NCBI GenBank assembly: GCA_934149515.1
Contig: CAKPFD010000003.1
Coordinates: forward strand, 8,228 to 72,227
DNA from: an uncultured Bacilli bacterium
Lineage (GTDB): Bacteria > Bacillota_I > Bacilli_A > RF39 > UBA660
Length of the DNA stretch: 64,000 bases
Reading direction: 5' to 3'
The translations under genes were made by a program, and so were the position numbers. Positions 1,561-40,470 of this stretch are shown one piece after another; within the stretch, counting starts at the first letter, position 1; each line of letters begins with the position of its first letter. Below the pieces are notes generated by a model that searched no databases, was not told the DNA's origin, and saw only the letters and a list, made by a program, of their open reading frames with translations.

Positions 1561-2019
1561 ATGAATAAAGCAACTTTACTAGTTGGTGTGATTGTTTTAT
1601 CACTTTTAACGTTTGGAATCATTAATATTACCCAAAATTATCAAACAGGAAATGAACTTGATTATTACTTGTTAAAAGAAACAACCGAAGCAGCTATGGG
1701 AGATGCTGTTGATATTGGATATTATCGCTTGTCTGGTTTATTACGGATTGATAAAGAAAAGTTTACAGAGAGCTTTGTTAGACGCTTTGCTCAAAATGTC
1801 AACAATGATCGAAGTTATCGGATTCGTATCTATGATATTAATGAAACACCACCAAAAGTCAGTGTGAAAATTGATTCTACAACTGCTGCTACTTTCAATA
1901 GTGAAACACTTGGTATTAGTAATCAAATTGATGCAATCTTAGAATCAAAATATCAAGAAAATCGTCTGATTACCGATATGATTCGATCTGGCAAACTAGA
2001 TTATAGTGAACTTGAGTAA
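1561..2019 (+). CDS. Small N-terminally anchored protein, candidate TadE/pseudopilin-like
   Basis: Strong RBS (GGAGG). One N-terminal hydrophobic helix (LLVGVIVLSLLTFGII), then a soluble domain. Located in the Tad locus. Confidence 0.35.
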   Translation: MNKATLLVGVIVLSLLTFGIINITQNYQTGNELDYYLLKETTEAAMGDAVDIGYYRLSGLLRIDKEKFTESFVRRFAQNVNNDRSYRIRIYDINETPPKVSVKIDSTTAATFNSETLGISNQIDAILESKYQENRLITDMIRSGKLDYSELE

Positions 2020-2054
2020 GTAAAGTTAGAATAAAAAGGAAAGAGGGAAGAAAA

Positions 2055-2876
2055 ATGAATAATTTAGTTATTGGAATGAAGAAATTTTTTACAAATAAGA
2101 ATACCGTAACGGTGGTTGGAGTGTTAGCTGCTGTTATTGTATTATATGTTGGTTATAATATGCGAATTAAACAAGCTATTAATCCAATTAGTGTGCCTTA
2201 TGCTAAACAAACTATTAATCCTGGTGTTCAAATTACTGAGGATATGATAGGCACAATGGAAGTGCCACCTTCAATGTTAAAAGGAGATGTTATCCGTAAT
2301 AAAGCGTCTGTTGTTGATAAGTATTCTTATTCTGATAGTGTTATCCCAGAAGGTAGTTTGTTTTATAAGAGAAGTGTTGTGGAAAAAGAACAATTACCAG
2401 CAAGTATTGTGTTAGATTATCCAAAAGGGTATGTTTTATATAACTTAGATGTTACGATGGCTAGTACTTATAGTAACTCTATTTATCCTGGTAATTATAT
2501 TGATATTTATTTAAAAGTGATGAATCGTATTGATGAAAATTCAACATCAACAGTAACAGATAAAATCATGATTGGTAAGTTATTAGAAAATGTCAAAGTA
2601 CTTGCCGTTTATGATAGTGAAGGAAATAATGTGTTTGCTAACTTAGATGAAAAGAAAACACCAGCTCAAATTATTTTTGCGGTACCAGAAGAGCATCATA
2701 TCTTATTGCGTAAAGCGAGTTATTTAAGAGCATATGAATCTGAAATTATTCCAGTACCAACAGCTGAAAGTTATGAAGAAAAACCAGGAGATGTGAAGTT
2801 ATCTAGTGAAGATTTGAAATCATTTATTAATAATGTAACAGCAATGACAGAAGCTGATTTAAAAGCACAACAATAA
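2055..2876 (+). CDS. cpaB: Flp pilus assembly protein CpaB/RcpC-like (N-terminal TM + SAF-like domain)
   Basis: N-terminal TM, then a domain with the CpaB-like pattern (IKQAINPISVPYA...GVQITEDMI...VIPEGSL). Immediately upstream of the tadA-like ATPase. Confidence 0.5.
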   Translation: MNNLVIGMKKFFTNKNTVTVVGVLAAVIVLYVGYNMRIKQAINPISVPYAKQTINPGVQITEDMIGTMEVPPSMLKGDVIRNKASVVDKYSYSDSVIPEGSLFYKRSVVEKEQLPASIVLDYPKGYVLYNLDVTMASTYSNSIYPGNYIDIYLKVMNRIDENSTSTVTDKIMIGKLLENVKVLAVYDSEGNNVFANLDEKKTPAQIIFAVPEEHHILLRKASYLRAYESEIIPVPTAESYEEKPGDVKLSSEDLKSFINNVTAMTEADLKAQQ

Positions 2877-2897
2877 AAAAGGAAGAAGGGGTTAGTT

Positions 2898-4022
2898 ATG
2901 AATGAAGCGATTTTTGATAAACTGGATTTTGGGCCGTTTCGTCCTTTGATCGATGATGATGATATTACCGATATTTCTTATTGTAATCATGGACAAGTTT
3001 GGATTCGCTCCCTTACATATGGTTCTAAACGAGTAGAAGTACCTGGCCTTGATGATGCTTTTGTAGAAAAATTAGCATTCCAATGTTCTAATGTGATGGG
3101 TACTACGTTTAACAATGCAAAACCATTTTTAGATGCTGAAAGTAGTGAACTTCGTTTGAACTTCGTCCATGAATCTATTGCAACGAATGGAATTGCTACT
3201 GTTATTCGTAAAACGCCAGCAAAGATTCGTCTTTCTAAAGAAAAATTATTGGCAGAAGATTATTTTACAGCTAATATTCATGATATTTTGTTAAAGTGTG
3301 TGGAAGGTCATTGCAATATCATTGTCAGTGGAGAGACTGGTAGTGGTAAAACAGAGTTTGTTAAATATTTGGCTAGTCATACGAAAGAGAATGAAAAGAT
3401 TATTACGATTGAAGATACCCTTGAATTACATTTGGACAAGATTTTTCCACATCGTGATATTGTAGCGATGAAGACCAATAATGTGGCAAGTTATACCGAT
3501 GTGTTGGTTACTTGTATGCGTCAGAATCCCAAATGGATTTTATTATCAGAAGTTCGTAGTGCGGAAGCTGTTACAGCTGTTCGTAACTCGATATCTTCAG
3601 GACATAATATCTTATCGACAATCCATGCGGATAAAGCCAGTGCCATTCCTTATCGTATGTATTCCTTACTAGAAACAGATATTGATGTTTCACAGTTTTT
3701 AACAACTATCTATCGTTATATTCAATTAGGAGTTCATATTAAGGCGTATTATAGTAAAGAATATGGTAAGTTTCATCGTGAAGTTGATGAAGTTGTTGAA
3801 TTTTATGTGGATGAAAATAATCAACCACAAACCCATATTTTATATCAGAAAACATTTGGTAAGAACCCTGTTCAAAACATGCCAAGTGCTCATTTAAGAG
3901 AATATCTTGAAAATCAAAATATTTCTATTGATTCCCTTATTACTAATCAAGATTCTATGGGAAGTATAGCAAAGGAACTTGATTCTACGGTGGCAGATCA
4001 ATTTTCTGGCGAAATTTTATAA
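2898..4022 (+). CDS. tadA: Tad/Flp pilus secretion ATPase CpaF/TadA (VirB11 superfamily)
   Basis: Walker A VSGETGSGKTEF, ITIEDTLEL, Walker B/Asp box ILLSEVRSAEA, His box GHNILSTIHA. 374 aa, followed by TadB/TadC-like membrane proteins. Confidence 0.85.
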   Translation: MNEAIFDKLDFGPFRPLIDDDDITDISYCNHGQVWIRSLTYGSKRVEVPGLDDAFVEKLAFQCSNVMGTTFNNAKPFLDAESSELRLNFVHESIATNGIATVIRKTPAKIRLSKEKLLAEDYFTANIHDILLKCVEGHCNIIVSGETGSGKTEFVKYLASHTKENEKIITIEDTLELHLDKIFPHRDIVAMKTNNVASYTDVLVTCMRQNPKWILLSEVRSAEAVTAVRNSISSGHNILSTIHADKASAIPYRMYSLLETDIDVSQFLTTIYRYIQLGVHIKAYYSKEYGKFHREVDEVVEFYVDENNQPQTHILYQKTFGKNPVQNMPSAHLREYLENQNISIDSLITNQDSMGSIAKELDSTVADQFSGEIL

Positions 4023-4035
4023 TAGGAGTGGTGCT

Positions 4036-4929
4036 ATGGTATTTTTTATCTTATTGCTCATTGCAATTTTAGTTCTTTTATATCGAAATTATAAAGGACA
4101 AAATGTCTATAAATATATTAGTGAACAAGCAAGTGCTATTTACCAACGCTTTGCTCCTTATTCGTTTAAAGTAGTACGTGAAAAGACTAAGGAATTAGGA
4201 CAAGAATATACACCAAGACAATATATGATGCAAGTGCTTTTGATGGGAGGATTTGCAGGTGTTGTTTCGTATTTATACTTTTATAATTTGGTAATTTCTT
4301 TAGTGTATGTTCTTATAGCAGTTGCTACGATTCCATATTTAGCTTTTTTACGATGTAAGCGAGTTTATAGTGAGTATATCTTCGAACAGGTTCAAGTGTA
4401 TACCACCAATACCATTATGGAATTTGCGACAACGCAGAGTTTCGTAAAGGCTTTAGAAGGAGTAAAGGATTCTGGTGTTTTGGAAGATCCAGTGTTAAGT
4501 GATGTTCAGACGATGATCGATATGGCGTATGAAGATGGCTCTATTGATGCAGCGATTGAATACATGAATGGGAAATATCCTTATTACATCGTTAAAAATA
4601 TGCATCAATTATTCTTACAAATTACCAAAGAAGGTGCTAGGGATACAGGAGAAAGTTTGGAAAACATGCAACTTGATATCGATACACTAGTGGAAAGTGT
4701 TTATCGTGATCGAATGGATAGAGCAAACTTTCATAAAAAGTTTTTACAATATGGTGTTATGCTTTATTTAATGGTAATGTTAGTGCAATATATGTTAGGT
4801 AGAGATAATTATATTGCACTACTTAGTGAAGGATATGTCAAAGTATTATTGCATGGTATTATTATCTTTAATAGTTATTTCCTATTGAAAGGTGAGAAAT
4901 ACTATAATGAGAATGTGGGGGTTGAGTAA
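4036..4929 (+). CDS. tadB: TadB-like inner membrane pilus assembly protein (GspF-like)
   Basis: Start refined to the ATG at 4036 with RBS AGGAGTGG. Polytopic membrane protein following tadA, as in canonical tad operons. Confidence 0.5.
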   Translation: MVFFILLLIAILVLLYRNYKGQNVYKYISEQASAIYQRFAPYSFKVVREKTKELGQEYTPRQYMMQVLLMGGFAGVVSYLYFYNLVISLVYVLIAVATIPYLAFLRCKRVYSEYIFEQVQVYTTNTIMEFATTQSFVKALEGVKDSGVLEDPVLSDVQTMIDMAYEDGSIDAAIEYMNGKYPYYIVKNMHQLFLQITKEGARDTGESLENMQLDIDTLVESVYRDRMDRANFHKKFLQYGVMLYLMVMLVQYMLGRDNYIALLSEGYVKVLLHGIIIFNSYFLLKGEKYYNENVGVE

Positions 4930-4931
4930 AA

Positions 4932-5711
4932 ATGGAAATTGTAATTGTTGCTGTTATCCTCTTTTTTGTTTTAATTTATAATAAAACAATTGATGAGCGA
5001 CGTTTTATTCAAGATAACCGTCATTATTTTGAAATTTTACGAGAAGATGATTATAACTTTTTAGTATATGCAAAATATGGAGAAGATGCAAAACCAGATG
5101 TTTTGTTCCAAAAACGCATTTCTTATGGAATTGTCATTATGTTTGTTTTCATGTTTTTATTTCTAGATTCCCTTAATCTTTTGAATATCGTCTTAGCGTT
5201 TTTAATTGGTTTTTTGGTATTTAAAATGCCTTATCAAACGTTAAAAAAATACTATAAACAACATTTGCATGAAATTGATATTATGCTACCATACTATTTA
5301 AAGAGTTTAGAAATATTGATTCAGCATTATACAGTACCAGTTGCCATTGGTAAAAGTATTGAAGATGCACCAGATATTTTTAAACCTGGGTTAAGAGAAT
5401 TGATTGAAAAAGTTAATTCAGGTGATAGTAGTATTACACCATATATGGATTTTGCTAATCAATATCCCGTAAGAGATTCTATGCGAATGATGCGTTTATT
5501 GTATCGTTTAGGAATTGGCGGTCAAGAAAAGAAACAAGAAAGATTGTTGATGTTTTCTAAAACAGTTTCTAATTTGCAAGCGAAAGCTCGTGAAACAAAA
5601 TACAAAGAGCGTCTTTCTAAGATGGAATCACAAACACTTATCATGCTTGTTGTCACTGGTATTTGTGTCATGGTTATTATCTTGACATCTATGTTTACAA
5701 TGCTTGGTTGA
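4932..5711 (+). CDS. tadC: TadC-like inner membrane pilus assembly protein
   Basis: N-terminal TM, internal TMs, C-terminal TM. Paralogous in architecture to the preceding gene, in the position of tadC. Confidence 0.5.
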   Translation: MEIVIVAVILFFVLIYNKTIDERRFIQDNRHYFEILREDDYNFLVYAKYGEDAKPDVLFQKRISYGIVIMFVFMFLFLDSLNLLNIVLAFLIGFLVFKMPYQTLKKYYKQHLHEIDIMLPYYLKSLEILIQHYTVPVAIGKSIEDAPDIFKPGLRELIEKVNSGDSSITPYMDFANQYPVRDSMRMMRLLYRLGIGGQEKKQERLLMFSKTVSNLQAKARETKYKERLSKMESQTLIMLVVTGICVMVIILTSMFTMLG

Positions 5712-5794
5712 CATTAAATGTGAATTCGTTGGTTACAAATGATTATTTATCTGTTATAATAAAGTTAGAAAATAGGAAGGAGAATAAATAGAAT

Positions 5795-6025
5795 ATGAAA
5801 GAAGCGACTGGAGAGTTAAATATGACAGTTATTACCATTTTATTGATAGGAGCAGTTTTAACTTTTGCTTGGATATTATGGGATAAGGTAAAAGCCAAAA
5901 TTGAAAATCAATGGGATAATGTCGATAAAGTTAACAGCGAACAAAAAGGTCAGTGGGGTAAAACTGGTTATCATTATACAGATGATCATTCTATTGAATA
6001 TGCTGGTTATATAATGAATTGGTAG
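5795..6025 (+). CDS. Small membrane protein, candidate Flp-type pilin (non-canonical)
   Basis: 76 aa with a short polar leader ending in Gly (MKEATG/ELN...), then a hydrophobic helix. Lacks the canonical G/XXXXEY motif. Confidence 0.3.
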   Translation: MKEATGELNMTVITILLIGAVLTFAWILWDKVKAKIENQWDNVDKVNSEQKGQWGKTGYHYTDDHSIEYAGYIMNW

Positions 6026-6042
6026 TAAAGGGAGTGGAATAG

Positions 6043-6510
6043 ATGAGAGATGCTTTTGGTAGTTTAATATCGATACAAGTTATATTGGCGTTTGTTTTGC
6101 TAATCAATGGCTATTTAGCGTACTCTGTTAATTATACAAGAGCATTTCGCGTCAAAAATGGAATTATCAATATTATTGAACAATATGAGGGACATACAGA
6201 AGCAGCAAAAGATAAAATTTCCACTTATACCGATGATATGAAGTATCATGTTCCTGCTGAAATGATGAATACAGAATCATTAAGAGATTATGAATGCATT
6301 CAAACAGAAGGTTATTGTATTAAAAAAACAGCAGTAGCAGCTACCGATCCAACAAGTGATGGTTATCGTGGAGCATATTATAGTGTGGTAACATTTGTTA
6401 ATATTGATATACCTGTATTGAATAAATTTATTCGACTTGGTAGTTTCTTACAAGTAAAAGGAGAAACAAAAACAATTTATAGTACTGGTACAGATAGTGA
6501 ATTAGAATAA
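6043..6510 (+). CDS. TadE-like pseudopilin candidate
   Basis: N-terminal MRDAFGSLISIQVILAFVLL resembles the TadE/TadF N-terminal hydrophobic segment after a Gly. 155 aa. Confidence 0.35.
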   Translation: MRDAFGSLISIQVILAFVLLINGYLAYSVNYTRAFRVKNGIINIIEQYEGHTEAAKDKISTYTDDMKYHVPAEMMNTESLRDYECIQTEGYCIKKTAVAATDPTSDGYRGAYYSVVTFVNIDIPVLNKFIRLGSFLQVKGETKTIYSTGTDSELE

Positions 6511-6531
6511 AAATAAGGGGATGAGAAATAA

Positions 6532-7509
6532 ATGAATGTCATTATTGCAAATGAAGCAAAAGATATGTTAGCACAACTTGATATTGATGTTATCAAAAGT
6601 ATTACTGGTGTGCATAGTGCAGATGAAATTGTTAATATGTTTAAAAACTTCTTTTATGCAAGAATGATTTTGGATGTAACAGCAATTGAAGATTATGATA
6701 ATATTACAAATATTCAAAAAATATCTATTGGCTTAGATGCGGATAAAATTATTTTAGTATTACCAAATAATGAAATGTCAACATCTAGTGGTTATTTATC
6801 TAAATTGATATCTATGGGTATTTATAACTTTACGACAAATCTTGAAGGTGTAAAGTATTGTCTTTCGCATCCGAATACTTATAAAGATGTTGCACATATT
6901 CAACAATTAAATGATCTATCTAGTACTATTAATGAAAAAGCAGTTGGTGGTTCTAGAATTATTGGTATTAAAAACATTACTGATCATGCAGGTAGTACAA
7001 CACTTATTTATATGCTAAAAAAAGAATTAGAACAGACTTATGGAATGAGTGTTGTTGCCATTGAAATTAATCGTCATGACTTTATGTATTTTAATGATAA
7101 AAATATGATTTCTGTTACGAATGAAGAATTGATGGCTGAAATTGTAAAACATAAAGATGCTAGTATTATTTTGATTGATTTGAATGATTCAGATAATGAT
7201 GGTGTATGTTCTGATGTTTTATATTTATTAGAACCATCTAGTCTTAAATTGAATAAATTAATGCGAAGAAACCGGAAGGTTTTTGAAGAATTGAAAGGGA
7301 AAAAGATCGTGTTAAATCAAAGTTTATTGACAAGTCATGATGTCATGGATTTTGAATATGAAGGAAAGACAAAAGTATTTTATAATTTACCACCTTTAAA
7401 TGATCGAGTAAAAAATCCTAGTTTAAGTGATTTTTTAGTTAAACTTGGCCTTTTGAATAAGACTGAAGAAAAAGAAGAAGGAAAGATTTTTGGTTTGTTT
7501 AAACGTTAA
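6532..7509 (+). CDS. TadZ/CpaE-like protein (receiver-like N domain + degenerate ParA/MinD-like ATPase domain)
   Basis: N-terminal receiver-like fold pattern, then a central degenerate P-loop GIKNITDHAGSTT. Position in the tad locus. Confidence 0.4.
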   Translation: MNVIIANEAKDMLAQLDIDVIKSITGVHSADEIVNMFKNFFYARMILDVTAIEDYDNITNIQKISIGLDADKIILVLPNNEMSTSSGYLSKLISMGIYNFTTNLEGVKYCLSHPNTYKDVAHIQQLNDLSSTINEKAVGGSRIIGIKNITDHAGSTTLIYMLKKELEQTYGMSVVAIEINRHDFMYFNDKNMISVTNEELMAEIVKHKDASIILIDLNDSDNDGVCSDVLYLLEPSSLKLNKLMRRNRKVFEELKGKKIVLNQSLLTSHDVMDFEYEGKTKVFYNLPPLNDRVKNPSLSDFLVKLGLLNKTEEKEEGKIFGLFKR

Positions 7510-7568
7510 AATATTGACAAATTGGAAAAATTTTTATATGATGTTAGTAGTGAAGGAGAGTATGTGAT

Positions 7569-7925
7569 ATGAAACTTTTAAATTTTATGCAGTTAGCAGA
7601 AGAAACGGTTGATATTGATCCAAATTGTCAGGGGTTAGGCTTCATTGTTAAAATTGTTAAGCATGGGATTTTTCCGATTTTGCAAATTGGTATTCCTATT
7701 ATATTAATTGTATTAGGCACGCTTGATTTAGGTAAAGCAGTTATTTCCTCAGATGAAAAAGAAGTAAAAGCAGCACAAAGTAGATTGATGAAAAGATGTA
7801 TTTATGCAGTAGCCGTTTTCTTTATTGTTACTATTGTTCAGTTAGTGTTTAATTTAATTAATAATGTGGCTGCAAGCAATGCTGGTGATTTGACTGGTTG
7901 GTGGACATGCTGGTCAAATATTTAG
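7569..7925 (+). CDS. VirB2/TrbC-like T4SS pilin candidate (two-TM hairpin)
   Basis: 118 aa with two TM helices separated by a charged loop DLGKAVISSDEKEVKAAQSRLMKR. Paralogous to the C-terminus of the 10743-11858 protein. Confidence 0.45.
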   Translation: MKLLNFMQLAEETVDIDPNCQGLGFIVKIVKHGIFPILQIGIPIILIVLGTLDLGKAVISSDEKEVKAAQSRLMKRCIYAVAVFFIVTIVQLVFNLINNVAASNAGDLTGWWTCWSNI

Positions 7926-7948
7926 TTAGTAAATATTAAAGGTAATCG

Positions 7949-7975
7949 TTAGGGAGACTTATAAGAGTCTTCTTT
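7949..7975 (+). terminator. Weak hairpin (AGACT-N6-AGTCT) plus T-tract, candidate terminator after the VirB2-like gene
   Basis: Inverted repeat followed by TCTTTTATT, read directly from the sequence. Confidence 0.3.
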
Positions 7976-8559
7976 TATTATGTCCTGGATAGGAATATAA
8001 TAAAAATTATCGCTGGTGCGGGTGAGAGTTGAAAAAACGATGGTGAAAGTTCTTTATCTCATACACGATGGAATTGCCAATATCACATAATCTTTACTCT
8101 AAAATATTGAAGGAAAGTAATATATAAAAAATTACGCCGTGATATTGGAATATATTTAAGAAGACTATGTGATTATAAGAAAGTTGAGATAATAGAAGTA
8201 CAAGCATGTTCAGACTCTATATACACGTGTTAGAGTAAAATAGGTGTATCATCATTTATGGGATATTTAAAAAAATTTGTTGATGATTTTCGAACGTTAA
8301 TGAATAATCTTTCTTGTTTTTTATTATGATATTTGGTATGATATGTTCTAAGGTGGAAGAAGGTGAAATGTTATGGAAGATATTATAAATGTTTCTTTAA
8401 TAATAAATCAAATTAGTCACCATAATGAATCAACGCTTGTTAACATAAAGCTAACAGGTGGGTATTTATTTAACATAACAAAAATGTATCTATAAAATGA
8501 GCAGGATAAAACTATCTTGTATTTTTTGGTTATATAAAATTAAGTAAAGGAGAAACGAA

Positions 8560-10494
8560 ATGGGAATTCAATCTAGTATAGCTGCTGGTATGAAAATTGG
8601 TTTAGAAGCAACAAGAGATAGTGGAAATTTATCAAATATTCAAGTTGATGCTGTCAATAAAGCAATTTCTGATTTGGAAAGTGCTAATTTTTCTAATCAA
8701 AATGATTCACAAAGTGTAAATGTTGAAGAACTTGATTTGAATTTAAACAATTCTGTTCAAGAATTTAAAACTGAAAAACAAACATTATCAAACGAACAGT
8801 ACGATCAAGTTATTTCATCATATACCACTCAATATGATGAAACACTTGAACAACTCGATATTGTATTAAAAGCAAGACAAGAAGAATTAGATGATTTACA
8901 AAAACTAGCAATTGATACAGATACAGTAGAAGCAGAAAGAACAGTAACAGAAGAAAATAATGATGCTGATGCTCAAGTTATTAACATGATTGTTAGTGAT
9001 ATGGATGCATGTCCTGAAGAACGTCTGAAACAATTAGGAATTACACAAGATGAATTTCAGAATTATGATTTAGAACAATTAAAAGAACTTTATAAAAAGA
9101 AAATTCCATCTGTGCAGGAATTATATGGAATTGCAGGTAAAGATGTTAATGAAAAGTTAAGGGAAAATTCGGAATTTGTAAATTATGAAGAATATAAAGT
9201 AGCAAAAGAAGAAGCAGAAAATGATGTTGCTGCAATAAAAGAAGCAATTAAGAGATTAAAGATTCAAAAAGAGCAATTACAATATGATTTATTACCATCA
9301 TTAGATGATTATCAAAATTTTGAAGTAACAACTGTAGAAATAAAAGAAGAAAATGTTTTTGATTGTTTGGATACGGATTCTGGTAGTCCATATATTGATT
9401 ATGATAAGTATTGTGCAAAGTATGGTGCTATCGATGAATTAACTTTTTTAAGCGAAATGAAAGAGAAATATCCTCAATATGAAGTACGAGGATTAAAGCA
9501 TCAAGAGATATTAGAGAATATGCTTAAAGTTAGTGATGAAGATGAAAATTTACTTAAAATTTACCAATATTTGTATGCAAAAGAAGGAAAAGAAGCAGCA
9601 TATCAATATGTAGAAGATATAGAAGATCATACCAATCAATTATTAGGGAAGAAAAAAGCTGAAGAATTTTTAAGTACATTAGATGAGAATGATGCTGATT
9701 TAGAGGCTAAAATATTTAATCATTTAAAGACGAGTGGAAAAGGATTGATGGATGGGGTTGAGAGTTTTGGTGAAGGAATAAAGAATATATTTACCTCATC
9801 TGATGTTTATAGTGCAAATGAATATGAAGCGATGTTTATAGCAGAAGCCTTACAAGAAAAGGGATATGGTTTAGATTTTAACTATAATGTAAGTAAAGAA
9901 ATTGGTAGAGTTACTCCTAGTATTGCGCTTAGTACGATATGTTCTCCATTAGGAGCATCTACTGCTAGTACTATTTCTTCTGTTAGTTTAGGTTTATCTT
10001 CAACAGGAAATAGTTATCATAATGCTTTAATTGAAGGATATGAGCCATGGAGAGCAGCACTTTATGGTATTGCTTCTGGTACTAGTAGTGCTTGTTTATC
10101 AAAACTTGGAAGTTTACCTGGAATTTCAATGACAGATGAATCTGCTTCTTTACTTGTAAAAATGGTTAAAGAAGGTGGACAGTCTGCGGCTCAAAGAGTT
10201 TTAACAAATGGTTTTTATAATTCTATTATTTTAGGAAAGACGATTGATTTAACAGGACTTTCCGAACAAGCTATTCAATCATTTATTGTAGCATCACTTG
10301 CTTCTGGTGCTATCAATAAAATTAATGATATTGATGTTAGTATTGATGGAGAAATTGTTCATCTTAGTCTTTCTGCTATTAAAAGAGTTATAAAGGCTTC
10401 TTCTGGTGTTGCTAGTAAATCATCTAGTTTCTTGACAGAGTTACTTTCTACTTCAAGGAGTGGTGGCCATGTCGATTATGGTAGAAATAGATAG
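8560..10494 (+). CDS. Acidic coiled-coil protein of unknown function, first gene of the T4SS module
   Basis: Strong RBS AAGGAGAAA. 644 aa, no signal peptide. E/D/K-rich N-terminal two thirds, S/G/A-rich C-terminus. Confidence 0.5.
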   Translation: MGIQSSIAAGMKIGLEATRDSGNLSNIQVDAVNKAISDLESANFSNQNDSQSVNVEELDLNLNNSVQEFKTEKQTLSNEQYDQVISSYTTQYDETLEQLDIVLKARQEELDDLQKLAIDTDTVEAERTVTEENNDADAQVINMIVSDMDACPEERLKQLGITQDEFQNYDLEQLKELYKKKIPSVQELYGIAGKDVNEKLRENSEFVNYEEYKVAKEEAENDVAAIKEAIKRLKIQKEQLQYDLLPSLDDYQNFEVTTVEIKEENVFDCLDTDSGSPYIDYDKYCAKYGAIDELTFLSEMKEKYPQYEVRGLKHQEILENMLKVSDEDENLLKIYQYLYAKEGKEAAYQYVEDIEDHTNQLLGKKKAEEFLSTLDENDADLEAKIFNHLKTSGKGLMDGVESFGEGIKNIFTSSDVYSANEYEAMFIAEALQEKGYGLDFNYNVSKEIGRVTPSIALSTICSPLGASTASTISSVSLGLSSTGNSYHNALIEGYEPWRAALYGIASGTSSACLSKLGSLPGISMTDESASLLVKMVKEGGQSAAQRVLTNGFYNSIILGKTIDLTGLSEQAIQSFIVASLASGAINKINDIDVSIDGEIVHLSLSAIKRVIKASSGVASKSSSFLTELLSTSRSGGHVDYGRNR

Positions 10495-10742
10495 TAATGA
10501 TAAAAATAAAGGTTGATGGTAAAATTTTAGTAGTTTTATAAGACTGTATTATGGTTGTTAATAATTAAAAAACGTATTGTTTTGTTACTATAATGCAATT
10601 GGAAAATTATTGATTGCTAATTCTTTCTTAACTTTTAATTAGTATTCTATTTAATTTGTACTAGCTTTCGTGTAGCAAATACGTTATAATGATACTAGAT
10701 AGAAAATTGTGCTTAAAACGTATTAAAAGGAGATTGTTAGGT

Positions 10743-11858
10743 ATGAAACGAAAAATTAAAAATTTACTTTTTCTTATAGGATTGTTTTTCTTAGGATTCA
10801 TGCCGAACAATGTGGAAGCATTACAATGTAAATATGATGTACATATGTATAATCAGGATGATGGTTTTTCTAATATAGTTATTTTCAAAATTAATACTAA
10901 TGCTTCGACGGTTGAATTACCTGAAATAGATAGAAAACAATTAAATGGTTATGGCTATTTTTGGTCGTTGCAGGATAGTTATGCTGATTTTTATTTGAAA
11001 CAAGCAAAAAAAAATGGTAAGTTTCATTGCCCTAATATTGTGCTTCAAAATGTACCACCAAATCTAGCATTCGTAAAAGAGGATGATTCTATTAATGCAG
11101 CTGGATATTTCGTTGTTTCACCAGAAACAATTATTGAAGATGCTGATACTGAAAACGAAATAGAAAAAGTTTCTGATTCTTGTTCTGCACCTGTTGTGGT
11201 AGTAGATGCTGATGGGGTAGATACTATAGATGAATCTTATACTGTTTCCTTTAAAATTAGTACTGGACGTACAAAACAATGGTCTATTGATGATAGTATT
11301 GAGTATACAATTGCTGGGTATTCCAAGGGTGATTGGCAACTACCATATGATGATAAAAAAACTTTTTATTTAACTAAAGAGCTTTTGAATTCAGTGTATA
11401 AAAATAGTAGTTTGGATGTAAGTTGTCCTGAAAAAGTATATGCCTGTAAAACAGGTGGGGATTCGATAAGCCCGACAGCACGCTATGAACTTTATTTGTC
11501 GCCTAGTTGTAGTGAAGCAAAAAAAGATTATTTGAATAACGTTAGCTTGGATGGGATGAATCAATCTATTAGTTGTAGCGGATTGTTTGCCGATCAGAAT
11601 GAAGGATCTGTTTATTGGTTATTGCAAAAGATATTAAATTATATGAAGTTGTTAGGGCCAATTTTAGTTGTACTTTTGAGTTCTGTTGATTTTATTAAGG
11701 CGGTAATGTCATCTGATGAAAATGCAATGAAAGTAGCACAAAAAAAATTAATGGTGCGTTTAGTAGCAGCAATTGCCTTGTTTTTGCTACCTTCCCTTAT
11801 TCAATTAATTATAAGTCTTTTAGGTGGAATAATTGATTCAAATTGTTTATTACAGTAA
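10743..11858 (+). CDS. Secreted Cys-containing ectodomain fused to a C-terminal VirB2-like two-TM domain
   Basis: Start refined to 10743 (RBS AAAAGGAG, signal peptide MKRKIKNLLFLIGLFFLGF). C-terminal ~75 aa align with the 7569-7925 protein (shared core motif KAVxSSDE...KxAQxxLMxR). Confidence 0.5.
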   Translation: MKRKIKNLLFLIGLFFLGFMPNNVEALQCKYDVHMYNQDDGFSNIVIFKINTNASTVELPEIDRKQLNGYGYFWSLQDSYADFYLKQAKKNGKFHCPNIVLQNVPPNLAFVKEDDSINAAGYFVVSPETIIEDADTENEIEKVSDSCSAPVVVVDADGVDTIDESYTVSFKISTGRTKQWSIDDSIEYTIAGYSKGDWQLPYDDKKTFYLTKELLNSVYKNSSLDVSCPEKVYACKTGGDSISPTARYELYLSPSCSEAKKDYLNNVSLDGMNQSISCSGLFADQNEGSVYWLLQKILNYMKLLGPILVVLLSSVDFIKAVMSSDENAMKVAQKKLMVRLVAAIALFLLPSLIQLIISLLGGIIDSNCLLQ

Positions 11859-11968: not shown

Positions 11969-14155
11969 ATGGGATCTACTACAAAAGCCGCTTGGTATTG
12001 GGATATTATTAGAGAGCTGTTAGCTCACATTGATAATGTTGGTTATGCTATTTTGGGTACAGTTTATAAAATTTTTTATGCTATAGCAACAGCTACAATC
12101 ATTTCTGGTGATGTGATTCGTAATTTTTATAGTCGTATACAGTTAATTCTTGGCATTTTGATGATGTTCAAGCTTGCTATGTCTATTTTAAATATTATTA
12201 TTAATCCAGATTTAGTAACTGATTCAAAACAAGGTGGTACAAAAATTATTACTCGAGTAGTAACTGCCTTATTTATGCTTTTGCTTGTTATACCGATTAA
12301 TCTTCCTCTTGAAGAAGCTGATAGAACGAATAGTGGAAAGGCCTTGTCATTAAATTCCTATATTTATGATCATGGTATTTTGTTTGGCTTTTTATATAAA
12401 TTTCAAGATAGTATGATGCGTGAAAATATTATGGGACGTTTAATTTTAGGAACAACTGGTGGTGGAACCAGTTCTAGTGAAAATAATGATAGTAATGATT
12501 TAGATCGTGATTTTAATGACATTGATGCCAATAATTTGAGTGAAGTTGGTCGTAATATAGCTGCACAGGTTGCTAAAACTTTTATTCGTCCTAATGTTAA
12601 AAATGAATCTGAACCGTATTGTTATACAGATGCCAGTCAGGTAAGTGCTGATTCTGATTTTAATTCTTCTTATGATCCGGATACTAATCCGTGTCCTAAT
12701 GTGAGATGTCCAGCAGAAGTTTATCGTTCTGGCTATACGGATGAAGCTCTTGCTGCCTCTAGTGTTGTTAGAGTTATCAATACAAAATGTAAAGATTCTG
12801 AGTTAAATAAAAAGGTATATGCATTTAATTATATGCCACTTGTTGGTTTGCTTTCTAGTGCTTTTATGTCTGTTATTATAATAGGATTTACAGTTGATAT
12901 TGCAGTTCGTGCAATAAAACTTGCTGTATTGAGATTGATTGCTCCAATTCCAATATTGAGTTATGTTGATCCTAAGAGTCAAAAGGATGGTGCTTTTGGC
13001 AATTGGACGAAATCATTAATTAGCACTTATATTGATTTGTTCATACGACTTGCTATTATTTATTTTGGTGCTTTTTTGATTCAATCTTTATTTAGCTCTG
13101 GAACATTTGCAGGTATTAATTCAGGAAATGCTTTTATTGATATGTTATCTACTGTTGTTATTATTATTGGTATTTTAATTTTTATGAAACAAGCTCCTGC
13201 CTTTTTAAAAAGTGCTCTAGGAATTAAGGGCGAACCAATGAGTAATATTGGACTTGCTGGCTTATTTGGTGGTGCTGCTATGGCTATTGGTGGCGGAGGT
13301 GCTGCTGGCTTTGCACTTGGTATGATGCAGGGAGTGAGTGGAGCTGAAGAAGCAATAAAACAAGGAAAGGGTTTTTCTCCATTTGCTTCGTGGAAGACAA
13401 ATCGTGATCAGATGGCTAAAATTAGAACCGGTGACAAAGATGCGCGTGGTGGTGTAATGGGTGGTATGATGGATCGTGCATTATATCGTACACGTGAAAG
13501 ACGTTTGGGTAAAATGGGATTGACATATGAAGCTATGGAAACTGCTAAAGCGAGAGCTCATGCTCAACAGGAAGCTGTTCAAAGAGCACAACTTAATCGT
13601 GATCTTGCTTATGAGCAATTAAAAAATGCAAAAATTTTCTCTAATCCAAAATCATTACCACCAATTGGAGAAGCACCAAATAAGGATGATTTTATGAAAA
13701 CAGTTCAAGTACCTACCGGAATTGCGAATATAGATCCTTACAATCCAAAGAAGCAACACTTTAAAGAAGAACAGGTTTTGGATGATGATGCTTATAATGC
13801 AGCAATGAAAGAATACAATCAACGAGTATCAGAACGACAAAATCAACAGTCTTTATGGGATACATATATTAGAGCAGAGCAAAAATTATCAACTGCACAA
13901 GAATTGTCTACTAAACTTGATAAGAATTACAAAAGTATTAGTGAGGTTAGAGGTACTTATGGTACTAATTCAACTACTGGTGGAGAATTTGGTGGAGATA
14001 CAAGCCGAGTTCGTAGACGTGAAGGAGATAAGAGAACACAATTTGATGTAAATTCTAATGGAGAAGTTTCTCGTCTTGATGATGTTGGTGTTGATGCTAT
14101 TATATCTGAAACTGGTAGTAGCCCTCGTTCTGGTGGCCGTGGCCATAGGCCATAA
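11969..14155 (+). CDS. VirB6/TrbL-like polytopic T4SS channel protein (PrgH/TcpH/ConG-like)
   Basis: 728 aa with many TM helices in two clusters, a Gly-rich loop and a hydrophilic C-terminal tail. Located just upstream of the VirB3/VirB4 genes. Confidence 0.55.
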   Translation: MGSTTKAAWYWDIIRELLAHIDNVGYAILGTVYKIFYAIATATIISGDVIRNFYSRIQLILGILMMFKLAMSILNIIINPDLVTDSKQGGTKIITRVVTALFMLLLVIPINLPLEEADRTNSGKALSLNSYIYDHGILFGFLYKFQDSMMRENIMGRLILGTTGGGTSSSENNDSNDLDRDFNDIDANNLSEVGRNIAAQVAKTFIRPNVKNESEPYCYTDASQVSADSDFNSSYDPDTNPCPNVRCPAEVYRSGYTDEALAASSVVRVINTKCKDSELNKKVYAFNYMPLVGLLSSAFMSVIIIGFTVDIAVRAIKLAVLRLIAPIPILSYVDPKSQKDGAFGNWTKSLISTYIDLFIRLAIIYFGAFLIQSLFSSGTFAGINSGNAFIDMLSTVVIIIGILIFMKQAPAFLKSALGIKGEPMSNIGLAGLFGGAAMAIGGGGAAGFALGMMQGVSGAEEAIKQGKGFSPFASWKTNRDQMAKIRTGDKDARGGVMGGMMDRALYRTRERRLGKMGLTYEAMETAKARAHAQQEAVQRAQLNRDLAYEQLKNAKIFSNPKSLPPIGEAPNKDDFMKTVQVPTGIANIDPYNPKKQHFKEEQVLDDDAYNAAMKEYNQRVSERQNQQSLWDTYIRAEQKLSTAQELSTKLDKNYKSISEVRGTYGTNSTTGGEFGGDTSRVRRREGDKRTQFDVNSNGEVSRLDDVGVDAIISETGSSPRSGGRGHRP

Positions 14156-14175: not shown

Positions 14176-14496
14176 GTGAACTATTTAATTCCGGCAAATA
14201 CAAAAAGAGGGACATTAATTTTTGGTATATTTCGACCGGCTGATGCTATTATCTTTGGTGTTGGTGTATTAGTAACAATTGTTTTGTTAGCCATTATGCC
14301 GGTTGGAACTACTTTGCAATTACTTTTAGTGCTTTTACCAGCAGCAATTTGTACTTTTTTAGTTATTCCTGTTCCTAATTATCATAATATGTTAACAATT
14401 ATTATTGAGTTATATACATTTCTTACTACACGTCAGAAATATATTTGGAAAGGTTGGTGTGTGAAGGATGTCGAAGACGTCAAGAAAGATCGGTAG
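14176..14496 (+). CDS. PrgI/VirB3-like small membrane protein
   Basis: 106 aa, N-terminus NTKRGTLIFGIFRPADAIIFGVGV matches the PrgI-family pattern (K-R-G-LTxRQ-like, two TMs). Directly precedes VirB4. Confidence 0.55.
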   Translation: MNYLIPANTKRGTLIFGIFRPADAIIFGVGVLVTIVLLAIMPVGTTLQLLLVLLPAAICTFLVIPVPNYHNMLTIIIELYTFLTTRQKYIWKGWCVKDVEDVKKDR

Positions 14497-15025
14497 TCCT
14501 TATACCGAAGATTGGTTACCAGTTGAATCTATTCAAAATGGTATGATTGTTTGCTCTAACAAACAAAAAGTTACTGGAGTAAAAATTGCTCCTAGAAATA
14601 TCTTTATCTTAGATGCTCAAGCACAAGATAATGTATTAATCAGTTTAAAAAACTTTTATAATATGATTGATTTTGAATTCTGGTTAGTTGTAGCAGATCG
14701 CCCAGTTGATATATCAATTTATATGTCACAATTACAACTTTTGTATAATGATACAACTTCTCCAGCAATTCGTAAAATCATTATGCAAGATATTGATAAG
14801 GGTAATACCTTTGTTAACAATAATATTGTTGATACGGAATATTATATTTTATTTAAAGATAGAGATGTTAATAAATTACAGAAACAAATTCGTTTATTAA
14901 TCAACGGCTTGGCAGGATGTGGATTGAATGCTAGCCAGGTTAGTAATGATGATTTGCGAATTATTTTAGAGAACTTCTTAAATGGAGGAAAATCAACAGA
15001 GTTTGGGACGGTGATGCCGGTATGA
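14468..15025 (+). CDS. VirB4 N-terminal domain encoded as a separate ORF
   Basis: 185 aa resembling the N-terminal region of Gram-positive VirB4 (PrgJ/TcpF/ConE). Its stop overlaps the next start as ATGA (15022-15025). Confidence 0.55.
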   Translation: MSKTSRKIGSPYTEDWLPVESIQNGMIVCSNKQKVTGVKIAPRNIFILDAQAQDNVLISLKNFYNMIDFEFWLVVADRPVDISIYMSQLQLLYNDTTSPAIRKIIMQDIDKGNTFVNNNIVDTEYYILFKDRDVNKLQKQIRLLINGLAGCGLNASQVSNDDLRIILENFLNGGKSTEFGTVMPV

Positions 15026-16812
15026 GTATAAGTTTAAAAAGTCAAATTGCTCCAAAAGGTTTGCAATTTAATGCAAGCGATTTCTTTATTAGTGATAAGT
15101 ATGCCACAATTTTAACGGTGGTATCTTATCCTAAATATATTAATCCTGGTTATTTATCTATGCTGACTTCTATGAGTGGTATTAAAATTGTTATTAAGCA
15201 TATACCAGTTCCTTTTTCTACTATGTCTAAAATGATTAACCGTCAAATTGCAGATTTAAGAGAAAAGTATCGTCAAGAAAAGGATCAAACAGCTAAAGAA
15301 AAAATACGACAAGATGCAGAAAGTTTGGAATATTTTGTATCTATGCTTGCTTCTAGCCAAGCACGTATCTTTGATTTCCAAATGCACATTATGATTAATG
15401 CTGATACTAGAGAAGAATTAGAATTAAAGAAAGTCAATGTTAAGAATTATTTGGATGCCATGGAATTAAGAGCAATTTCTTTACGTTTTGAGCAAGAAAA
15501 AGTTTTAAAAAGTATTTTACCAGTTTTCCCAAGTCAAGATGTTGAAGAAAGAATTGGTACGCCGATTCCATCTCCTACGATAGCAGCAATGTATCCATTT
15601 ATTTTTGATAGTATTAAAGATCCTGGCTTATCTGTATTGCTTGGTGTTGATTTCTCTGGTGGTGTTATTTTATTCAATCAATTCTTATATCAAATTCGAA
15701 AAGAGAGTAATCGGAATAATGCTAATATGATTATGCTTGGTACTTCTGGTAGTGGTAAAAGTACAGCTGCTAAGTTGATTTTACGTAGTCATATACGAAA
15801 TGGTTGCCAGATTGTTGCTATCGATCCTGAAAATGAATTAGAAGAAATCACACGTACTTTTGGTGGTGATACTATTGATATTGGTAAAGGTGGAGAATTT
15901 GGTTTAATTAATCCATTAGAAGTTATTATCGATGCTGATGAAGAAGAGATTGCTCAAGGTTTAGGATATACAGTTTTAACTAGAACATTACAATCTTTAA
16001 AAGCATTTATGCGTTATTATGATCCTTCTATTGAAGAAGATGTTTTAACGATGTTTAGTGAAGTTGTCCAAGATACTTACAAACGTTTTGGAATTGATTT
16101 TAATACAGATTTTTCTAAATTTACTTCTCAAGATTATCCAACTTTTACCGATGTTTATGCTACTATCAAAGGACGTTTGATGTCAATGACAGAGCAGACA
16201 CATGAACGTGATATTATGCAGCGTTTGGAACTTAAAATTAGACCATTGACGAAAGAGTTAAAATTTTATTTTGATGGTAAGACGACGGTTAGTGCTAATA
16301 GTGATTTTATGGTATTTAATATTAAGGAATTGATGAATTCAGATACAAATGTCCGTAATGCTTTATTCTTTAATGTTTTAAAATATGCTTGGGGCTTATG
16401 TTTGGATGTCAATGTTAATACTATTTTAATGGTTGACGAAGCCCATGTTTTACTTGGTTCTAATAACGTTTTGGGAGCTGATTTCTTAGCACAAGTTCAA
16501 AGACGTGCTCGTAAATATAATACTGGTACAATTATTATTACTCAACAACCAAGTGATTTTTCTGATCCTGCTGTTATTACACAAGGGAAAGCTATTTTTG
16601 ATAACTCAGCTTATTATTTAGTGATGGGTCTTAAGAAACAAGCAGTAGATGATTTATCAAGATTGATTGATTTAAATGATAATGAAAAAGATAGTATTAA
16701 ACGTTATTCGCAAGGAGAAGCATTGTTTGTTTGTGGTAATCGACGAATGCGTATTAATGTTGTAGTGACAAATGAAGAGTTAGAATCCTTTGGCTCTGGT
16801 GGTGGATTTTAA
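15022..16812 (+). CDS. VirB4-family T4SS ATPase (C-terminal ATPase portion)
   Basis: Walker A GTSGSGKST, Walker B ILMVDEAHVLL, and the IIITQQPSDF motif. Confidence 0.85.
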   Translation: MSISLKSQIAPKGLQFNASDFFISDKYATILTVVSYPKYINPGYLSMLTSMSGIKIVIKHIPVPFSTMSKMINRQIADLREKYRQEKDQTAKEKIRQDAESLEYFVSMLASSQARIFDFQMHIMINADTREELELKKVNVKNYLDAMELRAISLRFEQEKVLKSILPVFPSQDVEERIGTPIPSPTIAAMYPFIFDSIKDPGLSVLLGVDFSGGVILFNQFLYQIRKESNRNNANMIMLGTSGSGKSTAAKLILRSHIRNGCQIVAIDPENELEEITRTFGGDTIDIGKGGEFGLINPLEVIIDADEEEIAQGLGYTVLTRTLQSLKAFMRYYDPSIEEDVLTMFSEVVQDTYKRFGIDFNTDFSKFTSQDYPTFTDVYATIKGRLMSMTEQTHERDIMQRLELKIRPLTKELKFYFDGKTTVSANSDFMVFNIKELMNSDTNVRNALFFNVLKYAWGLCLDVNVNTILMVDEAHVLLGSNNVLGADFLAQVQRRARKYNTGTIIITQQPSDFSDPAVITQGKAIFDNSAYYLVMGLKKQAVDDLSRLIDLNDNEKDSIKRYSQGEALFVCGNRRMRINVVVTNEELESFGSGGGF

Positions 16813-38892: not shown

Positions 38893-40470
38893 TTGGAAAA
38901 AGAAAAGATAGAAAATAATCAATCTCAAAAGAAAAAACATTCAACAAGAAATATTATTTTAGCAATACTTGCTATTTTACTTGTTTGTGTTGTTGGTGGA
39001 GTGGGAGCTTATGTTTTTTATCAACCAAAGAGTACACCAACGAAAAAAGATGATGATCAAAAAGTATCTATTTATCGATTTAAAGGAAATGATATCGAAG
39101 ACTTTGATATGTCATTTTTAAAACTTGAAAATAATGATAAAAATAAAATTTATAGTCCATTATCTATTAAATATGCTTTAGCTATGTTACAAGCTGGTAC
39201 TAAAGGAAGTTCAAAGGCTCAAATTGATAGCTTATTTGATGAATATAAATTTAAAAAATATACAACAAGTGATCATTTGTCTTTTGCTAATGCTTTATTT
39301 GTTTCTAATGCTTTTAAGAAAAATGTAAAATCTACTTATATTGAAAAATTAAAAAAAGATTACTATGCAGATGTTATTTTTGATTCCTTTGATAATGCAG
39401 CTGCTGTAAATCAATGGATTGATAATAAAACATTTCATCTTATTCCTAATTTAATTGATGATAGTACTGTTTCAAGCCTTGATTTTCTATTGGTGAATGC
39501 TCTTGCAATCGATATGGAATGGAATAAATTTATTCAAGCGACAACTTCTTCTGCTCGTGAAGATCATTATAGTGTTCATTATGATCATGAAGATTATTAT
39601 ACCTATGTTCCAATTATTAGTGGAAGTTATGGTACACTTTTATTTAATCAAAAAGATGAAGTGGAGGCTTTGGAATTTGGGGCTTCTATCAATAAATATG
39701 ATATTGTTAATACATTAGGTAGGGATAATATTAAACAATTAATTTCATCTGAGTATCAAAAATGGTTGCAAGAAGATGAATATAATTATCAATATGCACA
39801 AGAAGAAAATGAATTAGATGTTGATGCTTATACAGAAAAATTTATTCAAGAGCTTGATGCTAACTATAAAAAATTAGATACTTCTACTGATTTTTATTTT
39901 TACAATGATGATTCTTACAAAGTGTTTGGTAAAGATTTGAAAACGTATGATAATACAACATTAGAATATGTTGCTATTATGCCGAAAACAGAAGAGTTAA
40001 GTCAATTTATTCAAAATACAACGGCTAAAAAAATAAGTGAATTAGTTGGAAATTTGAAACCAATTGCTCTTGATCAATTTGAAGATGGAGCCGTTACTAA
40101 AATAACTGGAAAAGTACCATTATTTCAATTTAGTTATGATTTGGATTTGGAAAATGATTTGAAAAAACTTGGTATAAAAGATGTATTTGATGAAAAGAAA
40201 GCAGACTTATCTAATCTTGCTTCTGATGCCCATATTGAAGAAGTACTTCATAAAGCGACGATTGATTTTTCTAATGAAGGAATTAAAGCAGCAGCAGCAA
40301 CGATAGAAGCTGGTATGGGTTCTACAAGCTTTGGTTTTGAACACTTATTTAAAATTCCTGTGATTGAAATAGATATAACTTTTGATAAACCTTACTTATT
40401 CTTAATACGTGATAAAGATAGTGGAGAAGTTTGGTTTGTTGGTAGTGTTTATCAACCTAACGTTCATTAA
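38893..40470 (+). CDS. Serpin-family serine protease inhibitor with N-terminal membrane anchor
   Basis: C-terminal serpin hallmark IDFSNEGIKAAAATIEAGMGS (hinge/reactive-centre loop) and FLFLIRDKDSGEVWFVGSVYQP. Confidence 0.8.
   Translation: MEKEKIENNQSQKKKHSTRNIILAILAILLVCVVGGVGAYVFYQPKSTPTKKDDDQKVSIYRFKGNDIEDFDMSFLKLENNDKNKIYSPLSIKYALAMLQAGTKGSSKAQIDSLFDEYKFKKYTTSDHLSFANALFVSNAFKKNVKSTYIEKLKKDYYADVIFDSFDNAAAVNQWIDNKTFHLIPNLIDDSTVSSLDFLLVNALAIDMEWNKFIQATTSSAREDHYSVHYDHEDYYTYVPIISGSYGTLLFNQKDEVEALEFGASINKYDIVNTLGRDNIKQLISSEYQKWLQEDEYNYQYAQEENELDVDAYTEKFIQELDANYKKLDTSTDFYFYNDDSYKVFGKDLKTYDNTTLEYVAIMPKTEELSQFIQNTTAKKISELVGNLKPIALDQFEDGAVTKITGKVPLFQFSYDLDLENDLKKLGIKDVFDEKKADLSNLASDAHIEEVLHKATIDFSNEGIKAAAATIEAGMGSTSFGFEHLFKIPVIEIDITFDKPYLFLIRDKDSGEVWFVGSVYQPNVH

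Follow-up and report, generated by a model that had tools for sequence, protein, structure and literature searches.

Within a stretch of 64,000 nucleotides (nt) from an uncultured Bacilli bacterium (contig CAKPFD010000003.1, positions 8,228 to 72,227, forward strand; hereafter the window), two genes encode a small and a large protein that carry the same type of two-helix hairpin, in a chromosomal locus that also holds genes of a type IV secretion system (T4SS). As judged from the sequences, the common origin of the two hairpins is near certain, and so is the placement of both as divergent relatives of the T4SS_pilin family (PF18895). The reading that we prefer, with a confidence slightly above even, is that the small protein would be a major VirB2-like subunit and the large one a variable, surface-displayed minor subunit, both using one assembly module in a chromosomal T4SS of Bacilli.

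The shared hairpin and its family placement

The small hairpin gene (7569-7925, + strand) encodes 118 amino acids (aa) and the large one (10743-11858, + strand) encodes 371 aa plus a stop codon, each having a ribosome-binding site of the AAGGAG type 9-12 nt 5' of the ATG. These coordinates agree with those of an earlier sequence-only reading of the same DNA, whose length of 372 aa for the large protein has to be corrected, and the start of the large protein is the same in public gene calls (P0121, 100% identical). As seen by BLASTP with composition-based statistics, residues 43-104 of the small protein align without gaps to residues 306-367 of the large one, with 25/62 positions identical (40%), 45/62 positive (73%) and an E value of 5e-16, and the profiles of the two families match over 66 columns with a probability of 99.2% (E 1e-19). 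The homologous region comprises the last ~90 aa of the large protein.

The motif D(L/F)xKAV..SSDE...KxAQxxLxxR, already noticed in the sequence-only reading, is the best-conserved segment in both hairpin families. The consensus residue is identical in 12 of the 24 loop columns, and the top shared columns are polar and located in this loop (D, K-A, S-S-D, K, A-Q-S, L and R), while the residues of helix 2 common to both families (A, F, T and L at i, i+4, i+8 and i+12) lie on one helical face. Biased transmembrane composition can inflate alignment scores, but a chance likeness of hydrophobic segments is left with practically no probability by the pairwise E value, the profile match, the polar nature of the best-conserved columns and the Cys pair common to both families. 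Thus, the hairpin duplication that had been proposed stands, on the pairwise as well as on the profile comparison.

The small protein (579 homologues) is ordered as Cys20, a helix at residues 24-60, a polar tip, a second helix at 63-104 and a WxxC114W end; it lacks a signal peptide, and its N-terminus is a polar, acidic tail of 19 aa. AlphaFold2, run with the family alignment, gives a single long hairpin of these two helices (24-60 and 63-104; predicted local distance difference test, pLDDT, 74.6). The basic loop and tip, delimited by conservation to residues 53-76 (DLGKAVISSDEKEVKAAQSRLMKR; 7725-7796, + strand), have D53, K56-A57, K67, A69-Q70 and R76 invariant and a mean of 6 Lys and Arg residues. 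Meanwhile, alignment and AlphaFold2 place the module of the large protein at 11574-11855 (+ strand), where Cys278 is followed by a helix at 290-322, the loop, a helix at 326-362 and Cys368. In both families, the Cys preceding helix 1 and that following helix 2 are conserved at 99-100%, and the bracketing pair is present in 330 of the 338 hairpin proteins collected; we infer that it would form a disulphide joining the two outer ends of the hairpin.

The loop keeps a constant length of 24 residues in both families and contains 5-6 Lys and Arg, compared to 0.5-0.7 in the C-terminal tails. Because of this excess, and because a signal peptide and a Cys-rich ectodomain are N-terminal to the hairpin of the large protein, both hairpins are predicted to have the N- and C-terminus outside and the basic loop in the cytoplasm, the topology of the small protein following from its homology to the large hairpin. 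This is the VirB2/TrbC-like topology put forward in the sequence-only reading, here still as a prediction.

Regarding the family placement, neither window protein has a match to any Pfam family at E<=0.1, and in NCBIfam, at the same threshold, the small protein has none and the large gene, when translated as a longer form of 389 aa, only a stray match to TarQ (E 0.0049; 15.9 bits, the cut-off being 350). Among 21 family sequences and consensuses, PF18895 is listed for 17, usually over approximately its whole 71-position profile and with E values from 2e-6 to 0.44. The gathering score of 26.6 bits is exceeded by just one of these 21, the distant relative P0198 (28.1 bits), the consensuses of the large and small families remaining below it with 22.5 and 11.1 bits, respectively; 20 of 58 large-family members match the profile at E<=0.01. 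Moreover, the 12 hairpins near P0198, 8 of which are annotated as PF18895, share the motif and the Cys pair, and their comparison by hhalign gives probabilities of 98.1% for the small family (E 1e-13) and of 99.9% for the large family, the latter being partly circular because the large-family alignment includes P0198. A homologue search by word index, started from the P0198 hairpin, returned only 13 close relatives and thus scarcely widened the PF18895 sample.

Membership of the window proteins in TrbC/VirB2 is not demonstrable by profile. The sequence-only reading had looked to such a match, and PF04956 is absent from the hmmscan lists, the only method applied to this family, of the 21 family sequences and consensuses (E<=10) and of the two window proteins (E<=0.1). 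The NCBIfam model NF045849 (Mbov_0395 pilin-like, cut-off 40 bits) reaches at best 15.4 bits (E 0.011) with the large-family consensus, the small window protein having no match at E<=10 and neither window protein one at E<=0.1. Searches with Foldseek at E<=0.001 returned nothing from the Protein Data Bank (PDB) for both models and nothing from viral structures for the large model, and neither hairpin protein contains a type IV or Flp prepilin motif.

Variable ectodomains, tandem arrays and expression signals

The large protein starts with a Sec-type leader, MKRKIKNLLFLIGLFFLGFMPNNVEA, followed by LQC; this signal peptide was read from the sequence and covers residues 1-26, ending in VEA (10743-10820, + strand). 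A26 and C29 are almost invariant across the large family, and a leader-like N-terminus is found, by a crude test, in 57 of the 63 large paralogues of related loci. Of the 8 Cys of the protein, 0 are within the hydrophobic membrane-spanning stretches; the sequence-only reading had already described a signal peptide and multiple ectodomain Cys. As modelled by AlphaFold2 with the family alignment (pLDDT 72.5), a leader helix is followed by two beta-rich domains, at ~26-131 and 145-251, and by the C-terminal hairpin at 290-322/326-362.

The hypervariable, Cys-containing ectodomain (residues 27-277; 10821-11573, + strand), as defined by the model and by identity contrasts, has no Pfam match in the window protein or in 58 large-family relatives scanned, and no PDB sequence or fold match and none in viral structures. 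Compared to the window protein, its closest relative (P0122) is 99% identical in the hairpin and 92% in the leader but 51% and 64% in the two ectodomain domains, and the next relative (P0123) is 93% identical in the hairpin but only 21% and 32% in these domains; as medians, the identity is 56% for the hairpin and 20% for the ectodomain. A slow hairpin combined with a fast ectodomain is consistent with an exposed domain, for binding or as an antigen, that would be held by a constrained module and be under diversifying selection or replaced as a cassette. A tandem duplication of the two beta domains, considered because of a repeated CxY...CPxxxY pattern, found no support, the hhalign probability being just 5.5%.

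Relatives of the small protein occur in 251 species-level genomes, surveyed with one genome per species, and the 80 loci listed among them belong to metagenome-assembled genomes (MAGs) of uncultured gut 'Bacilli' and 'Tenericutes', to Candidatus Onthousia, which is classed as Bacilli incertae sedis, to Ca. Faecimonas and to Clostridium sp. CAG:451; a few are MAGs labelled otherwise, and one is a circular 1.52-Mb genome. When all open reading frames (ORFs) of the fetched loci were searched with a hidden Markov model of the hairpin, at least two tandem hairpin genes were present in 64/66 loci with at least 3 kb of downstream sequence, with a maximum of four genes per array. Fusions of at least 250 aa were found in 55/66 loci, so the same fusion does recur in homologues, and a second small hairpin gene in 27/66. 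Loci lacking a large fusion usually carry 144-172-aa forms consisting of signal peptide, short linker and hairpin, so that the ectodomain is an insert of variable length between leader and hairpin.

In addition, an exhaustive profile search recovered 10,116 cluster representatives at E<=0.001, 7,859 of them at E<=1e-10, and among the best 150 of the 10,116 most are 300-550 aa long. The fusion architecture is thus abundant in metagenomes, with thousands of clusters at 50% identity, and its earlier description as unusual holds for the literature but not for sequence space. Distant ectodomain-hairpin fusions were also observed in chromosomes of spore-forming Firmicutes (L004, 10001-11044; L090, 10001-11311; L091, 10001-11446). 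One of them comes after a sigma factor gene and the spoVA operon and has no T4SS gene in the surrounding 10 kb, and two are a few kb 3' of VirD4 and M23/CHAP hydrolases, with rhodanese, rmuC and RNase R genes between.

Across the loci, the median identity to the window is 89% for the ATPase part of VirB4, 88% for the CpaF-like ATPase and 81% for the N-terminal part of VirB4, then 59% for the small hairpin, 56.5% for the large hairpin module, 38% for the VirB6-like protein and 33.5% for the wall hydrolase, and the window ectodomain is detectable by tblastn in just 5/80 loci. From this gradient, the locus is to be seen as a conserved functional envelope machine with fast-changing exposed parts, and not as a decaying mobile element, its genes being evidently under strong purifying selection. 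As to mobility, no relaxase or integrase is encoded among the window ORFs scanned, the synteny is kept in related loci, and the block is flanked on its 3' side by sepF, divIVA, a RelA/SpoT-like gene, gatA, gatB and other housekeeping genes. The hairpin consensus had no tblastn match in 72,556 plasmids (PLSDB).

The small gene differs from the large ones in its flanking signals. Directly upstream there is a sigma-70-type promoter-like site, TTGACA-17-TATGAT, with an 11/12 match (7514-7542, + strand), and directly downstream a terminator-like stem-loop with a T-run (7951-7974, + strand), recognized by its structure and by conserved equivalents. With a criterion of at least 10/12 matches within 120 nt upstream of the gene, a promoter match was found for the small hairpin gene in 70/79 loci, compared to 10/224 control ORFs of the same loci (4%) and 5/64 large hairpin genes; for the terminator-like hairpin the values were 76/79, 24/224 (11%) and 12/64, respectively. 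This enrichment over controls suggests that the small gene is a separate, strongly expressed unit within the cluster, as expected for a major structural subunit, and the large hairpin genes look like ordinary operon members.

Genes of the locus and its surroundings

The genes of the locus form a single co-directional block. It opens with genes for a DUF5411 protein, an RcpC/CpaB-like protein, a CpaF/VirB11-class ATPase, two polytopic membrane proteins and three small or unknown proteins, followed by the small hairpin gene; next come an insertion, the large hairpin gene, a TrbL_4/VirB6-like gene, a 106-aa gene at the VirB3 position and VirB4, split into two overlapping ORFs; the block closes with genes for a wall hydrolase with a SpoIID domain, a protein of 263 aa, VirD4 and a HerA-like ATPase. 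With its VirB6-, split VirB4-, hydrolase- and VirD4-like genes, this arrangement supports a T4SS context.

The Tad-like module (2055-5711, + strand; PF16976, PF00437) comprises the RcpC/CpaB-like protein, the CpaF/VirB11-class ATPase and the two polytopic membrane proteins, and the wider Tad-like stretch (1561-7509, + strand) also holds the DUF5411 protein and proteins of 76, 155 and 325 aa. The 76-aa and 155-aa proteins have hydrophobic N-termini, and the 325-aa protein is cytoplasmic and 80% conserved. In the related loci examined, the Tad-like genes, with median identities of 70-88%, remain syntenic with both the hairpin array and the T4SS, and the whole looks like one combined Tad/T4SS locus.

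Next to the large hairpin gene is that of a VirB6/TrbL-like polytopic membrane protein of 728 aa (11969-14155, + strand), which matches TrbL_4 (PF19597) with E 2.4e-7, above the gathering score, and has the same position in related loci. The following membrane protein of 106 aa (14176-14496, + strand) has a weak TcpE match (E 0.08), and its putative VirB3 identity comes from its conserved position directly before VirB4. The VirB4-like ATPase (14468-16812, + strand) is encoded by two ORFs of 185 and 596 aa (14468-15025 and 15022-16812) overlapping by 4 nt, the N-domain preceding the ATPase, which match the NCBIfam Mbov_0397 family VirB4 model with E 1.5e-14 (profile positions 104-277) and 1.3e-104 (294-893). 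The identical split in L006, L008, L009 and L092 marks it as conserved rather than as the product of a frameshift error.

The cell-wall hydrolase at the VirB1 position (16837-19149, + strand) has a SpoIID-type domain (PF08486, E 1.2e-6). Across genomes, this slot after VirB4 (in L008, 16717-18516; in L009, 16493-18115) is occupied by SpoIID with or without Peptidase_C39_2, by Peptidase_M23, or by Glucosaminidase with CHAP, which indicates module swapping at a fixed position. Further downstream, the VirD4-type coupling protein (19961-22060, + strand) matches PF02534 (E 2e-59) and PF12696, and directly 3' of it is encoded a HerA/DUF87-type ATPase of 589 aa (22131-23900, + strand), the third P-loop ATPase of the cluster.

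In the window, the two hairpin genes are not adjacent, being separated by a transposase pseudogene of the IS200 type (Y1_Tnp) that contains two stops in frame (8057-8311, + strand; Pfam E 2e-10) and by an ORF of 644 aa (8560-10494, + strand). At the position of the pseudogene, related genomes carry another small hairpin gene, or directly the large gene; a degraded second small paralogue was sought in the 7926-8560 gap and not found. The 644-aa protein has no family match; its N-half is acidic and coiled-coil-like, its C-half hydrophobic and rich in Gly, Ser and Ala. In the L001 contig (99% identical; 2956-9752), the homology with the window begins at 8540, and 5' of the 644-aa ORF there are genes for a 1533-aa FtsK/SpoIIIE protein of EssC-like size and a 94-aa protein, the FtsK/SpoIIIE protein occupying the place that the small gene and the Tad-like genes have in the window. 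This difference suggests a strain-level rearrangement, and the 644-aa protein is possibly a type VII secretion substrate.

Other genes of the window were also noted. Just 3' of the T4SS block (25596-27359, + strand), a 587-aa protein with an N_methyl prepilin motif and DUF6273 is encoded, resembling a large type IV pilin, and a DUF6273 protein is found 5' of the locus in L008 and L009 as well. At 38893-40470 (+ strand) there is a bacterial serpin of 525 aa (domain E 5e-46) with a hydrophobic N-terminus. The region 48489-52210 (- strand) has a GC content of 0.25, a reversed GC skew and minus-strand genes including DUF4236 and KilA-N, with a tRNA-Leu(CAA) at its end (52124-52210), and may be a small island or prophage remnant.

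Proposed mode of assembly, rival readings and known systems

In the mechanism that we propose, each hairpin would insert with both ends outside, leaving the conserved basic loop in the cytoplasm, and the Cys pair would staple its two outer ends by a disulphide. In analogy to the VirB4-dependent extraction of VirB2 known from Agrobacterium work, the T4SS would then engage the inner-leaflet face and the loop that both hairpins share, and would build the hairpins into a single wall-spanning conduit or filament, the bulk of which would be the small protein. The ectodomain paralogue would co-assemble at low copy through the same module, as a surface adhesin or specificity subunit in the functional place of VirB5. 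Within this proposal, the polymerisation of the hairpins into a filament or conduit has about even odds, and the placement of the large protein as a minor or tip subunit is less likely than polymerisation itself. Less likely than not is the broader suggestion that a small-genome gut Bacilli lineage might make a VirB2-type, T4SS-dependent surface filament or conduit from a stapled major pilin and hypervariable 'adhesin pilins', coupled to Tad and with no relaxase nearby, for cell-cell or host interaction rather than conjugation.

Several points weigh against polymerising pilin-like subunits. Neither window protein matches PF18895 or PF04956 directly at E<=0.1, no solved pilin or other solved structure was matched by PDB sequence search with three family profiles or by Foldseek, and a two-helix hairpin is a low-information fold. 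To our knowledge, no PF18895 member has been shown experimentally to make a pilus, so that the 'pilin' label is itself interpretive. The disulphide is deduced from Cys conservation alone, and the promoters and terminators were called from consensus matches in DNA rich in AT, though compared with controls. Regarding the genomic context, P0161 is located between a sigma factor gene and rlmN, with no T4SS gene within 10 kb, and P0198 and P0190 are 2-6 kb from VirD4 with housekeeping genes between. Finally, a ~27-kDa domain on every subunit would be hard to fit in a compact filament, so that just a low-copy or terminal position appears plausible for the large protein.

The strongest competing explanation, which we consider possible though clearly less probable than the preferred one, is that the hairpins do not polymerise and serve as an anchor or translocon. 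The small protein would be a stoichiometric component of the VirB6/VirB3/VirB4 complex, and the large one, held at the machine through the same anchor, a surface or wall-spanning protein of a filament-free system, in the role of the VirB8-like proteins or surface adhesins of other Gram-positive systems. According to a 2025 review, a VirB2 pilus is not made by the known T4SS of Gram-positive bacteria, which rely on proteins anchored in the membrane and having large extracellular domains (PMC12857230). In favour of this explanation are also the lack of structural or sequence matches to solved pilins in our searches and the fact that the conserved cytoplasmic loop would be equally good as a docking site inside a membrane complex. 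However, the promoter and terminator that the small gene has of its own in ~90% of loci suggest an expression far above that of the channel genes, which would better fit a polymer subunit. Divergent paralogues in tandem, here 2-4 per array, are characteristic of pilins or exposed subunits, and the relatedness to a family annotated as T4SS pilin also speaks against a simple anchor.

Improbable by comparison is the view that the hairpins work outside the T4SS, as general surface anchors or as parts of the Tad-like module or other envelope structures, their adjacency to T4SS genes being a lineage-specific accident. The small gene does lie exactly at the junction of the Tad-like and T4SS genes, some large-family members are away from T4SS genes and beside sporulation or housekeeping genes, and in L001 the Tad-like genes and the small gene do not stand with the large gene and the T4SS. 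Nevertheless, the array directly precedes VirB6 in 64/66 loci, and the sole database family approached is T4SS_pilin, to which are added the faint matches to mycoplasma pilin-like models. Even the distant P0198 and P0190 are no more than a few kb from VirD4 and from hydrolases of the T4SS type, and the absence of a prepilin motif, of type IV or Flp, from both window proteins is a further point against this view.

Type IV pilins offer an analogy only: they also combine a conserved hydrophobic module with a variable, globular exposed domain, and their major and minor subunits share the module. Here, however, the module is a C-terminal hairpin rather than a single N-terminal helix, and there is neither a prepilin-peptidase motif nor homology. 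With VirB5/TraC, the large protein has in common its secretion by a signal peptide, its gene position between a pilin-like gene and VirB6 and, plausibly, its role as a low-copy, exposed specificity subunit. It shows no sequence or fold similarity to VirB5, a soluble helical protein without a membrane hairpin, and its attachment would be by a C-terminal pilin-type hairpin.

The VirB2/TrbC and TraA conjugative pilins of Gram-negative T4SS resemble the hairpins in the predicted topology, in the existence of a small unfused copy and in the place beside the VirB3, VirB4 and VirB6 genes. VirB2/TrbC pilins have a cleavable leader, and some members undergo head-to-tail cyclisation, as do TrbC and VirB2; here the large protein has a Sec-type leader and the small one a polar tail of 19 aa, and the Cys pair, by tying the N- and C-ends, could be an analogue of the cyclisation. 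The differences comprise the missing signal peptide of the small copy; the helices, which are longer here (33-42 residues); the envelope, which is monoderm; and the lack of a match to PF04956, to solved pilins or by Foldseek.

Regarding the mycoplasma integrative and conjugative elements (ICEs; Mbov_0395, MMCAP2_0566, Mbov_0396 and Mbov_0397; NF045849, NF045848, NF045889 and NF045975), the VirB4 of the window is nearest to Mbov_0397, with 350.7 bits, and the large-hairpin consensus matches the pilin-like models faintly, with E 0.003-0.011. These matches are all far below the curated cut-offs, and the neighbourhood here is chromosomal, with no relaxase or integrase in the window ORFs scanned.

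The closest likeness is that to the pilin arrays of Patescibacteria. In the 2025 review, Patescibacteria are the sole exception to the rule that T4SS of Gram-positive bacteria are without VirB2 and VirB5, and they are called unique among monoderms in their potential for conjugative pili (PMC12857230, which cites Wang et al. 2023 for the VirB2-like pilins). In Quinonero-Coronel et al. 2025 (PMC12102498), VirB2-like pilins were found with PF18895 and PF04956, in arrays of 2-11 genes and in chromosomal, mostly relaxase-less T4SS; most genomes with VirB2 homologues are described as being without a VirB1-type hydrolase; and these T4SS are said to share ancestry with the monoderm MPF-FATA, from which pilins are absent, leaving the origin of the pilins open. 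One such array is reported as essential in one species (PMC12102498, PMC12857230).

Both settings have a ~70-residue two-helix hairpin with a short basic loop, related by profile-profile homology, in divergent tandem paralogues beside VirB6/VirB3/VirB4, and in both the locus is chromosomal, with no relaxase found nearby and in small genomes. They differ in that the host here belongs to the Bacilli (Bacillota), the window proteins are below the Pfam threshold, members of the array carry a hypervariable ectodomain of 250-450 aa, a VirB1-type hydrolase is present and the array is fused to a Tad-like module. The ectodomain fusions, the near-universal Cys pair and the Tad-like linkage are unmentioned in the accessible text of PMC12102498 and PMC12857230, and the literature search returned no account of this Bacilli hairpin/T4SS system.

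Hairpin arrays were already known from Patescibacteria; what appears to be new here is the occurrence of T4SS_pilin-type hairpins with ectodomain fusions in a chromosomal T4SS of Bacilli. The conserved hairpin module, the Cys staple and the swappable ectodomain together make a testable design, by which a VirB2-like scaffold could display variable adhesins. The Bacilli locus also provides a second, phylogenetically separate setting in which to ask the role of relaxase-poor T4SS and, if the filament reading in Bacilli is true, would suggest that the pilin arrays of Patescibacteria came from a monoderm T4SS of the Firmicutes type.

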